Assembly (NCBI RefSeq): GCF_044324785.1
Contig: NZ_CP172127.1
Source: Escherichia coli
GTDB lineage: Bacteria > Pseudomonadota > Gammaproteobacteria > Enterobacterales > Enterobacteriaceae
DNA: 64,000 nucleotides
Strand: one strand, 5' to 3'
The position numbers were made by a program, and so were the translations under genes. This document shows positions 4,451 through 53,846 of this stretch, piece by piece (positions within the stretch are counted from its first letter, which is position 1; every line of letters starts with the position of its first letter). The notes below the pieces were generated by a model. The model was given only the letters and a program-made list of their open reading frames with translations. It made no database searches and had not been told where the DNA came from.

Positions 4451-7464
<3,014 letters not shown>

Positions 7465-7469
7465 ACACT

Positions 7470-7680
7470 GCCGGATGCGGCGCGAGCGCCTTATTCGGCC
7501 TACGGGTCGAATGTCCATGCGGGCTGTCACCCTCACCCCGGCCCTCTCCCTGAAAGGGCGAGGGAGAAAAACATAGCCTCGTTCAGCAACGGAGCTGAGC
7601 ACCGCTCCGGACAGTCCCCTCGCCCCTACGGGGAGAGGGTTAGGGTGAGGGGAACAAGCCGCACCATGTCTAAACAAGGC
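7470..7680. repeat. Intergenic palindromic repeat cluster (REP/BIME-like) between rhaA and rhaD
   Basis: Imperfect long inverted repeat gtcaccctcaccccggccctctccc (7527..7550) versus ggggagagggttagggtgaggg (7630..7651), plus internal hairpin ctccctgaaagggcgagggag. Confidence 0.7.
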
Positions 7681-7705
7681 AACCTAATTTACAGGAACAC
7701 AGAAC

Positions 7706-8530
7706 ATGCAAAACATTACCCAGTCCTGGTTTGTCCAGGGAATGATCAAAGCCACCACCGACGCCTGGCTGAAAGGCTGGGACGAGCGCAATGGTGGTAA
7801 CCTGACGCTGCGCCTGGATGACGCCGATATCGCGCCTTATCACGGCAACTTTCATGCACAACCGCGCTATATTCCGCTCAGCCAGCCCATGCCTTTACTG
7901 GCAAATACACCGTTTATTGTCACCGGCTCCGGCAAATTCTTCCGCAACGTCCAGCTTGATCCTGCGGCTAACTTAGGCGTCGTAAAAGTCGACAGCGACG
8001 GCGCGGGCTACCACATTCTCTGGGGGCTAACTCACGAAGCCGTTCCAACCTCTGAACTTCCGGCGCACTTCCTCTCTCATTGCGAACGCATTAAAGCCAC
8101 CAACGGTAAAGATCGGGTGATCATGCACTGCCATGCCACCAACCTGATCGCCCTTACCTACGTACTGGAAAACGACACCGCGGTCTTCACTCGCCAACTG
8201 TGGGAAGGCAGCACCGAATGTCTGGTAGTGTTCCCGGATGGCGTCGGCATTTTGCCGTGGATGGTGCCCGGCACCGACGAAATCGGCCAGGCGACCGCAC
8301 AGGAAATGCAAAAACATTCGCTGGTGTTGTGGCCCTTCCACGGCGTCTTCGGCAGCGGTCCGACACTGGATGAAACATTCGGTTTAATCGACACCGCAGA
8401 AAAATCAGCACAAGTATTAGTGAAGGTTTATTCGATGGGCGGCATGAAACAGACCATCAGTCGTGAAGAGCTGATAGCGCTCGGCCAGCGTTTCGGCGTT
8501 ACACCACTCGCCAGTGCGCTGGCGCTGTAA
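7706..8530 (+). CDS. rhaD: Rhamnulose-1-phosphate aldolase
   Basis: 274-aa [40 protein letters not shown]..., class II aldolase. Confidence 0.95.
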
Positions 8531-8539
8531 GGAGCAAAC

Positions 8540-8854
8540 ATGATCCGCAAAGCCTTTGTCATGCAGGTTAACCCCGACGCCCACGAAGAGTATCAGCGTC
8601 GGCATAATCCAATCTGGCCGGAACTGGAAGCAGTGTTGAAATCTCACGGTGCGCATAACTACGCCATTTACCTCGACAAAGCGCGTAATCTGCTGTTTGC
8701 CACGGTAGAGATTGAATCTGAAGAACGGTGGAATGCGGTAGCCAGTACTGATGTTTGCCAACGTTGGTGGAAATATATGACCGACGTTATGCCAGCTAAC
8801 CCGGATAACAGCCCAGTCAGTAGCGAGCTGCAAGAAGTGTTTTACCTGCCTTAA
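8540..8854 (+). CDS. rhaM: L-rhamnose mutarotase
   Basis: 104-aa [49 protein letters not shown]..., immediately downstream of rhaD. Confidence 0.92.
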
Positions 8855-8894: not shown

Positions 8895-10289
8895 TCAGAA
8901 GAAGTATTTAAAGCGAACGCGTGCGCCGTAACGGTCATCAGTATCATCACCGTGTTTTTTATCACCGTCGCTATCCAGAATGGAGTAATACGTCCCGAGG
9001 TAAATATTAAAGTTCTCCATATCCATCACATTAGCGAACTGATAAGACGCATGAATGGTGTGAATGGTGTACGTCCCTTCATCATCAATCCAGCAGTCGT
9101 TATCACAAACTACACCGCTGAATTCATCAATCTTATTGTGCGCGTAGATATAACCCAGCTCGAAACGTTTCCACAGCGCGTTAATCCCGGCAGTGAAATC
9201 TTTCTCATTATTAGCATCTAAATAGGCGGTATTAAGATTAACCACGACACCATTTTCCGGATCCGTTTTTAGGCCATTCCAGGTCATGCTCATACCATAG
9301 CCGGTACGATCGGACTGATCGACAAAATTACCCTTGCTATCGGTATAACCATAAGCATTATTTACCACGTTCGCTTCCATCGCTGCGGAAACGGTAAATT
9401 CTTCCGTCGGCGACCAGGCAATTACCGGACGCAGATAAGCAACATTTTTCTGCTGCTCCATATCGCGTCCATGATAATTACCGTCATTATATAAAGATGT
9501 TCCGTCTTCAAGTAACGTGTTTAATTCAAAATACCAGTTATCGAGTTGTTTGCTGACGAGGAAATTACCGCCAGCGTTAGAGCGCCCGCGGCCCTCTTTC
9601 ATCATATAGATATAACCGCTGCCATCGTCATAAAGATCGTTCGCAGTATTACCGGAATGTTCAACAAAGGTATCCTGATTCAGCGGGAACATATCGTAGG
9701 CTTCAAAACGGCCTACTTTGACCTTCCAGTCGTTTTCTTTGCCAAAGAAGAATACCGCATCATCGATATTTACTGAACCGTGCATGTCCCCCAGCGGTTG
9801 TGCGGAGAACCCGGCGAAATAACCATTATCCAGTTTTCGCATACCATCAAAACCTAACAGAATACGACCATTGAGATTCCACTGTTCATTAGTGGGATCG
9901 CTATTCACATCAGCGTTGGTCATTGCCAGCAGGCCATGATTACTTTCTGCATCCATATTAAATTCTACGTCGCCGTAGATTTTTAAATCGCCATAACCTG
10001 AGAGCAAAAGATTAGGTGAGGTGGAATTTTTCTTTGCAGATTCCGCCGTTGCCTGTCCATTTACCGGCGTATTGCCCTGGGCAGCCTTAATTTCGCGGAT
10101 CTCAGCGGCTTGTTGTGTCTGCAGCTGTTTAACCTGGCTCTCTGCTTTTGCTGCCCGCATTTCTGCCGCTTCCAGGCGTTCTTCCAGCAATGCCATGCGT
10201 TGTTCCAGCGTTAAATGCTGTGTTTTTGCCATTCCGGTACTACATGCCAATAATAAACCGATGGCTAAAGATAATGTCGATTTTTTCAT
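8895..10289 (-). CDS. Outer-membrane carbohydrate-type porin with N-terminal coiled-coil extension (ScrY/LamB-like)
   Basis: 464-aa ORF; signal peptide MKKSTLSLAIGLLLACSTGMA; about 60 residues of heptad-like helix (LEQRMALLEERLEAAEMRAAKAESQVKQLQ); aromatic/Gly-rich beta-strand-like body; C-terminal RFKYFF typical of OMPs; AT-rich upstream region 10290..10640. Confidence 0.7.
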   Translation of the reverse strand: MKKSTLSLAIGLLLACSTGMAKTQHLTLEQRMALLEERLEAAEMRAAKAESQVKQLQTQQAAEIREIKAAQGNTPVNGQATAESAKKNSTSPNLLLSGYGDLKIYGDVEFNMDAESNHGLLAMTNADVNSDPTNEQWNLNGRILLGFDGMRKLDNGYFAGFSAQPLGDMHGSVNIDDAVFFFGKENDWKVKVGRFEAYDMFPLNQDTFVEHSGNTANDLYDDGSGYIYMMKEGRGRSNAGGNFLVSKQLDNWYFELNTLLEDGTSLYNDGNYHGRDMEQQKNVAYLRPVIAWSPTEEFTVSAAMEANVVNNAYGYTDSKGNFVDQSDRTGYGMSMTWNGLKTDPENGVVVNLNTAYLDANNEKDFTAGINALWKRFELGYIYAHNKIDEFSGVVCDNDCWIDDEGTYTIHTIHASYQFANVMDMENFNIYLGTYYSILDSDGDKKHGDDTDDRYGARVRFKYFF

Positions 10290-43879: not shown

Positions 43880-43886
43880 TGTGAAA

Positions 43887-43965
<79 letters not shown>

Positions 43966-53754: not shown

Positions 53755-53846
53755 ATGCCGGATGCGGCGTGAACGCCTTATCCGGTCTACAAAAGCAATA
53801 TTTTCAACAGGTTTTGTAGGCCTGATAAGCGTAGCGCATCAGGCAA
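53755..53846. repeat. REP elements between glnG/yshB and hemN
   Basis: gccggatgcggcgtgaacgccttatccggtctac and gtaggcctgataagcgtagcgcatcaggc. Confidence 0.8.

Follow-up and report, generated by a model that had tools for sequence, protein, structure and literature searches.

A REP unit and an inverted BoxC pair between rhaA and rhaD of Escherichia coli, probably one allele of a hypervariable spacer

The 241-bp spacer between the genes rhaA and rhaD in the analysed Escherichia coli genome very probably consists of a REP unit followed by a head-to-head pair of BoxC repeats and represents one allele of a hypervariable spacer rather than a regulator specific to this locus. Judged from its nucleotide sequence, the elaborate palindromic block within the spacer is one REP plus an inverted pair of BoxC units, which are members of a known repeat family. 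The BoxC pair, referred to here as the doublet, is most likely a strain-variable passenger repeat that is co-transcribed as a strong hairpin and influences mRNA decay no more than modestly.

The analysed stretch of DNA (the window, 64,000 nucleotides) contains open reading frames corresponding to rhaB (4715-6208), rhaA (6199-7464), rhaD (7706-8530), and rhaM (8540-8854), all on the plus strand, and the rhaA-rhaD spacer occupies positions 7465-7705 (Table 1). Positions 7265-7905 are 99.8% identical to the sequence of strain N3, which carries annotation of the rha genes. The Shine-Dalgarno sequence of rhaD is located 29 nt past the end of the palindrome and is not paired into it in the minimum free energy (MFE) fold. 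Downstream of rhaM, the minus strand of the window contains a 464-residue-long open reading frame (8895-10289), and strain N3 has at this position an equally long annotated carbohydrate porin gene, followed by a yiiG pseudogene and fdhD. In K-12, rhaM is followed by the frvABX genes, which constitutes a further strain difference beside the rha operon.

Table 1 Features of the rhaA-rhaD spacer and its borders (window coordinates)
Feature	Position	Strand	Basis
rhaA stop codon TAA	7462..7464	+	open reading frame 6199-7464; rhaA annotated in the identical stretch of strain N3
Single REP unit GCCGGATGCGGCGCGAGCGCCTTATTCGGCCTAC	7470..7503	+	5 nt past the rhaA stop codon; one difference from the first K-12 REP
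148-bp imperfect palindrome, head-to-head BoxC doublet	7517..7664	.	inverted repeat and MFE; K-12 locus lacks the palindrome
Stretch homologous to the cpxA-yiiM doublet copy	7518..7681	+	local alignment with the strain N3 spacer
BoxC/TMECO unit of type B, second loop CCG, one stem mismatch	7530..7564	-	exact consensus match
52-nt doublet centre with its own 7-bp hairpin (7581-7587 / 7594-7600)	7565..7616	+	fold results
BoxC/TMECO unit of type A, second loop TTA, one stem mismatch	7617..7651	+	exact consensus match
rhaD Shine-Dalgarno AGGA (7693-7696) and ATG (7706-7708)	7693..7708	+	sequence; both outside the palindrome

Fold and family of the palindrome

The presence of a long imperfect inverted repeat with nested hairpins between rhaA and rhaD, which was the core of the original prediction, is confirmed by a repeat search and by folding. 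The arms of the repeat (7518-7564 and 7617-7663), each 47 nt in length, are separated by 52 nt and show 79% complementarity. They contain 12-nt cores that are 92% complementary (7527-7538 with 7637-7648, and 7529-7540 with 7629-7640), so that the shorter arms recognised at first (7527-7550 and 7630-7651) are the best-matching core of a longer palindrome. Each arm is also predicted to fold on itself (-22.1 and -28.4 kcal/mol), which gives rise to the nested hairpins, and the centre contributes another one. The MFE of the spacer RNA is -122.8 kcal/mol, compared with -83.0 +/- 5.1 kcal/mol for 200 dinucleotide-preserving shuffles (z = -7.9), none of which folded as well. The 148-nt palindrome alone reaches -97.2 kcal/mol on the plus strand and -93.9 kcal/mol on the minus strand. 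The predicted folding strength of the spacer is far in excess of chance, and the secondary-structure prediction that had been proposed as a check thus returned a stable structure rather than none.

Both arms conform to the TMECO consensus 5'-CCCTCNCCC N3-6 GGGNGAGGG N3 GGGNGAGGG-3', taken from Holder et al. 2015 (PMC4666352), who regarded TMECO as the same elements as the BoxC palindromic repeat known from the 1990s and the PIT elements described by Maher's group. The consensus matches exactly twice in the 64-kb window, once in each arm, and matched none of 100 shuffles (0 expected). The 35-nt core of the type B unit is identical to K-12 TMECO no. 10 (Table 1 of PMC4666352). The right arm matches the K-12 copy between adk and hemH, known in the literature as TMECO no. 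6 and HPGQ 15, over 57-58 nt at 93% identity in a megablast search, which amounts to similarity over the full unit; the complete 56-57-nt BoxC around the type A unit extends from about 7608 to 7664. BoxC has been listed as a 56-bp repeat with 32 copies (PMC2267715), and PIT elements were described by Hoyne and Maher in 2000-2002. According to the published rule, inverted pairs always join one type A and one type B unit, and this also holds here, with the TTA loop on the plus strand and the CCG loop on the minus strand.

The arms pass the TMECO consensus and also recur outside the rhaA-rhaD spacer. The BoxC family occupies a median of 18 places per genome and is present in 5,407 of the 5,426 E. 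coli genomes searched. All seven copies that were inspected lie between genes, as expected of a dispersed, multi-copy, intergenic repeat, and BoxC-family places are almost absent from the plasmid and phage collections. The number of places spans 1-29 per E. coli genome. Strains Nissle, O18:H1, and ST131, which we take to belong to phylogroup B2, have only 1-3 places, in agreement with the single copy reported for IHE3034. Two phage records, H161 and H162 ('Campylobacter phage'), each include a 140-nt match that equals the doublet between lldD and trmL of K-12 in coverage and identity, and these matches are probably E. coli DNA within the records. Since the rhaA-rhaD spacer of K-12 lacks BoxC, the locus is missing from Table 1 of PMC4666352, which lists 23 copies in K-12. 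Two supplementary files of Holder et al. (PMC4666352) do not name it either.

The G-rich strand of each arm corresponds to one of the G-quadruplex motifs of Kaplan et al. 2016 (PMC5100583): the core of the right arm is HPG1, GGGAGAGGGTTAGGGTGAGGG, and the HPG2 motif GGGAGAGGGCCGGGGTGAGGG is the reverse complement of the left-arm core (minus strand, 7530-7550). The arms might be supposed to act as non-B DNA, as an intrastrand triplex or a switch between G-quadruplex and hairpin, and to regulate transcription of rhaD or block polymerases in this way. The tract GGGGAGAGGGTTAGGGTGAGGGG at 7630-7652 is capable of forming a G-quadruplex, as it fits the pattern G3+N1-7 repeated four times, and single-stranded oligonucleotides adopt triplex (NMR, CD) or G-quadruplex and hairpin states (CD) in vitro. 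However, these forms have been seen only on isolated single strands, and a duplex forms once the complementary strand is present. DMS footprinting in vivo revealed no protection and did not support a stable triplex, and polymerases were unaffected in earlier in vivo tests. When ViennaRNA was run with G-quadruplexes permitted, both the single arms and the complete element still favoured the hairpin. We regard such a role of the arms as very unlikely.

The remaining recognisable repeat of the spacer is the REP unit. It matches the approximately 35-nt imperfect-palindrome consensus of REPs (also called PUs), GCCGGATG...GGCCTAC, which is repeated in the genome, and its hairpin is predicted to fold at -18.4 kcal/mol. 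REP-like matches occur elsewhere in the window at 43886-43924 (39 nt) and 53756-53790 (35 nt), each sharing about 89% identity with the REP (here 7467-7505). A search of the window against Rfam identified no family at the gathering score; below it, the REP hit naRNA4, a REP-derived RNA, and the doublet hit generic miRNA-precursor hairpins. A BIME comprises at least two alternating REPs with conserved linkers, and the spacer of the window holds a single REP, so it contains no BIME. The earlier assignment of the block to the REP/BIME type is accordingly right in so far as the block is made of dispersed palindromic repeats and includes one genuine REP, whereas the long inverted repeat is a BoxC pair.

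All alleles whose sequence was read contain the REP. PMC12306157, which summarises the primary work on REPs and translation (reportedly Liang et al. 2015), describes REPs less than 16 nt from a stop codon as lowering translation, and REPs as stabilising mRNA. At 5 nt from the rhaA stop codon, the REP falls into the group for which reduced translation of the preceding gene and stabilisation of upstream mRNA have been reported. A functional role more probably resides in the REP, the conserved part of the spacer.

Spacer alleles and a second copy of the doublet

A search with 200 nt of flanking sequence on each side across 5,426 E. coli genomes detected the 241-nt allele in 787 of them (about 14%). 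The spans of the matches imply other spacer lengths of 82, 92, 174, 266, 358, and 450 nt, of which 82, 92, and 450 nt were read directly and the intermediate lengths were deduced from the spans only. The four short alleles that were read (three of 82 nt and one of 92 nt) each consist of the REP and a 37-47-nt tail. The 450-nt spacer of K-12 starts with the same first REP, continues with four 92-nt REP-pair units, and lacks BoxC. The alleles that differ in length from that of the window are composed either of the REP alone, as in roughly one strain in five of an evenly spaced sample, or of a REP/BIME array with one to four extra 92-nt units. The predicted structure of the natural alleles covers about a ten-fold range, from -26 to -250 kcal/mol. 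TMECO loci were reported to be more rearranged than control intergenic sites, and the variability of the rhaA-rhaD spacer agrees with this.

Some strains contain a second copy of the doublet between cpxA and yiiM, which is about 95% identical to the rha copy, including the centre. Strain N3 holds both copies in the same orientation, about 9 kb apart. In the alignment of the rha spacer with the cpxA-yiiM spacer of N3, a core of about 127 nt is about 95% identical, and the similarity in the flanks is weaker. Because it fades gradually there, the ends of the element could not be fixed. The cpxA-yiiM spacer of K-12 is 105 nt long and contains a REP pair, which is a BIME (L010:2498-2602), whereas that of N3 and others is 255 nt long and contains the BoxC doublet and no REP. 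By its position in N3 (L015:6369-6623), the cpxA-yiiM spacer is located about 1.3 kb before position 1 of the window.

Within E. coli, the doublet centre is common only to the rha and cpxA-yiiM copies. An exact 24-mer of the centre had no match in species-representative genomes, and the centre therefore appears to be a strain-level E. coli sequence. We compared the doublet centre of the rha copy in the window with those of four other rha alleles (L136-L139) and of L003, L015, and L140. At three sites, the rha centre of the window carries the haplotype of the cpxA-yiiM copies, and the four other rha alleles differ. Two halves of the centre hairpin (7581-7600) read GTTCAGC...GCTGAGC in the window and in cpxA-yiiM, and GTGCGGC...GCTGAAC in the four other rha alleles. 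This pattern suggests that the rha copy and its cpxA-yiiM counterpart have exchanged a short tract by gene conversion. In the eight compared copies, the arms differ by a single G-to-A change, and both constraint and a recent origin would account for this.

The filled allele does not align unambiguously with the 82-nt allele, which does not represent a clean empty site. The only flanking repeat around the palindrome is the 5-nt sequence CCATG. In the limited sample of loci that was compared, neither a target-site duplication nor a clean empty site was seen at rhaA-rhaD or cpxA-yiiM.

BoxC doublets beyond E. coli

A scan of species-representative genomes with exact 21-nt arm cores located at least 120 occurrences of the same head-to-head pair, CCCTCACCCCNNCCCTCTCCC followed after 60-90 nt by GGGAGAGGGTTAGGGTGAGGG. 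Among the matches listed (L016-L135), the proteobacterial hosts are many Pseudomonas, Enterobacter, Pantoea, Polaromonas, Asticcacaulis, Rhizobiales, and Deltaproteobacteria; the others are Verrucomicrobia, Planctomycetota, and a Peregrinibacteria metagenome-assembled genome (MAG). Pseudomonas of the nitroreducens group have a 60-nt doublet centre that is conserved across 51 copies, and the centre in the P. fragi group differs from it. Rfam returned no family at threshold for copies at 13 loci from other genera.

In a Planctomycetota MAG (L046:2-213 and L047:1721-1933) and in Pseudomonas turukhanskensis (L098:2068-2787), BoxC-like units form tandem or alternating arrays. The forms include a tandem with a 45-nt period and clusters of alternating orientation with seven units within 720 nt, which recall the REPs in BIMEs. 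In the Deltaproteobacteria MAG K_DeepCast_150m_m2_098 (L110-L118, for example L110:5348-5592), the doublet is located inside a MITE of about 245 nt. This MITE ends in terminal inverted repeats of 17 nt, CAATGCGGTTCACTTAAGG, and is accompanied by target-site duplications of about 10 bp at palindromic targets flanked by GGGG/CCCC. Its copies are 98-100% identical and occupy at least nine loci, several of them at contig ends.

The wide distribution raises the question of whether the doublet itself is mobile, as a non-autonomous REPIN- or MITE-like element copied as a unit into rhaA-rhaD and cpxA-yiiM by a putative enzyme that recognises the BoxC arms. The rha and cpxA-yiiM spacers share the whole unit and are both polymorphic for its presence, the same pair recurs in distant phyla, the centre is conserved among the copies of nitroreducens-group Pseudomonas, and the units build alternating arrays. 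However, the two E. coli loci offer no target-site duplication or clean empty site, and both copies could be accounted for by gene conversion and ordinary recombination. The open reading frames between neighbouring BoxC units at nine loci, searched for a mobilising gene, share no similarity with one another, and none recurs. In published work, no connection with transposons, phages, or plasmids emerged; the few matches in the phage and plasmid collections do not tie the doublet to a mobile element, and the MITE that carries the doublet in the Deltaproteobacteria MAG is unrelated and has terminal repeats of its own. Mobility of the doublet is conceivable on this evidence, and we consider it doubtful.

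A broader proposal, which we put forward tentatively and consider unlikely, is that the doublet, and not the single 56-bp BoxC, is the real unit of a very widespread REPIN-like family of non-autonomous elements, spread by a putative arm-recognising enzyme. In such a family, near-invariant arms CCCTCACCCCNNCCCTCTCCC ... GGGAGAGGGTTAGGGTGAGGG would enclose a lineage-specific centre; it is present and multi-copy in Gamma-, Alpha-, Beta-, and Deltaproteobacteria, Verrucomicrobia, Planctomycetota, and a Peregrinibacteria MAG. If this were true, the copies at rhaA-rhaD and cpxA-yiiM would be two of its recent products in E. coli.

Probable role and comparison with known systems

We searched positions 6900-8300 for terminator and promoter signals. 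No terminator-like site was found on either strand, compared with 1.3 expected, and no promoter-like site was found. In published tests, PIT elements had neither promoter nor terminator activity and left RNA polymerase unaffected, and published work did not link BoxC/PIT to the function of adjoining genes or to operon position.

A large G+C-rich hairpin downstream of a stop codon resembles an intrinsic terminator or attenuator, which would end most transcripts after rhaA. However, no stem in the spacer is followed by a T-run, terminator-like sites were not detected, and PIT elements are inactive as terminators. Furthermore, two genes of the same orientation, rhaD and rhaM, follow downstream, with no promoter-like site between them and rhaA. 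Rhamnulose-1-phosphate aldolase is needed for growth on rhamnose, which also counts against termination after rhaA. A terminator function of the palindrome is extremely improbable.

The original prediction attributed to the block a probable influence on rhaBAD mRNA stability or polarity. In its strong form, the block would be a selected intercistronic regulator of the REP/BIME type, whose hairpins set the mRNA stability or polarity of rhaBA relative to rhaD. The very stable structure (z = -7.9), its location between two cistrons of a polycistronic transcript, and the retention of at least the REP hairpin in all alleles at the site speak for such a regulator, as do the reported effects of REPs on upstream mRNA and on translation near a stop codon (PMC12306157). 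The long palindrome, however, is BoxC and not REP/BIME, its relatives lack promoter and terminator activity and any tie to gene function or operon position, and the structure of the alleles varies ten-fold, with roughly one strain in five retaining the REP only. Such a range among natural alleles speaks against this hairpin being a tuned requirement, and we find a selected regulator improbable. A weak form of the prediction is plausible, in that a large hairpin devoid of a U-tract inside a polycistronic mRNA may modulate its stability or polarity, and the doublet may affect the rhaA:rhaD ratio. Since every allele retains a strongly folding repeat, the site may be under selection for a structured element instead of being a permissive landing site.

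The lack of terminator and promoter signals, the inactivity of PIT elements, the range of alleles, and the unpaired Shine-Dalgarno sequence lead us to read the doublet as a passenger repeat. Based on this reading, a sequence of events can be proposed. The doublet presumably reached the rhaA-rhaD spacer, or persists in it, through recombination or copy-paste between repeat copies. It would be co-transcribed in the rhaBAD mRNA and fold into a hairpin of about -97 kcal/mol without a U-tract. The hairpin probably does not stop transcription, because it has no U-tract and rhaD must still be expressed. At most, it may act as a barrier to 3'-to-5' exonucleases, as REPs do, or as a processing site favouring rhaBA over rhaD.

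The consequences for the rha operon are probably small, as the spacer tolerates 82-450 nt of palindromic repeats. For annotation, the spacer is best described as a REP and a BoxC pair and not as a new regulatory element. The rhaA-rhaD and cpxA-yiiM spacers, each with BIME and BoxC-doublet alleles, provide a clear example of BoxC/TMECO hypervariability. BoxC has been described three times, as a triplex motif, a G-quadruplex motif, and a palindromic repeat, with no agreed function. The paired form recurs with near-identical arms in distant phyla, and its biology may involve mobility or a conserved host factor.

The doublet shares with BoxC/PIT/TMECO/HPG1-HPG2 elements the exact consensus, both loop types (TTA for A/HPG1 and CCG for B/HPG2), and the intergenic location, as well as the opposite-strand A+B pair, the 56-57-nt unit, tens of copies per genome, and hypervariable host loci. 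The arrangement of the units is different: four of the five BoxC pairs in K-12 are tail-to-tail with gaps of 16-27 nt (coordinates from Table 1 of PMC4666352), whereas the rhaA-rhaD pair is head-to-head around a 52-nt centre, and only the lldD-trmL pair of K-12 is arranged alike.

The spacer resembles REP/BIME (PU) loci in that it contains one bona fide REP and that its K-12 allele is a BIME of alternating REPs. BoxC units resemble REPs in being found alone, as inverted pairs, and as alternating arrays. In contrast, the long palindrome has no sequence in common with REPs. A RAYT transposase is cognate to the REPs of E. coli, and none is known for BoxC. Intrinsic terminators share with the doublet a G+C-rich stem-loop downstream of a stop codon, but the doublet has no U-tract, its stem is very long and interrupted, and it is followed by cistrons of the same operon that need to be transcribed. 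The doublet differs from REPINs and MITEs in the systematic difference between its arms, one of type A and one of type B, and in that no associated transposase or target-site duplication was seen. With them it has in common two inverted conserved arms around a less conserved centre, a total length of about 110-150 nt, many copies per genome, and, in some Pseudomonas genomes, a centre that is conserved along with the arms.
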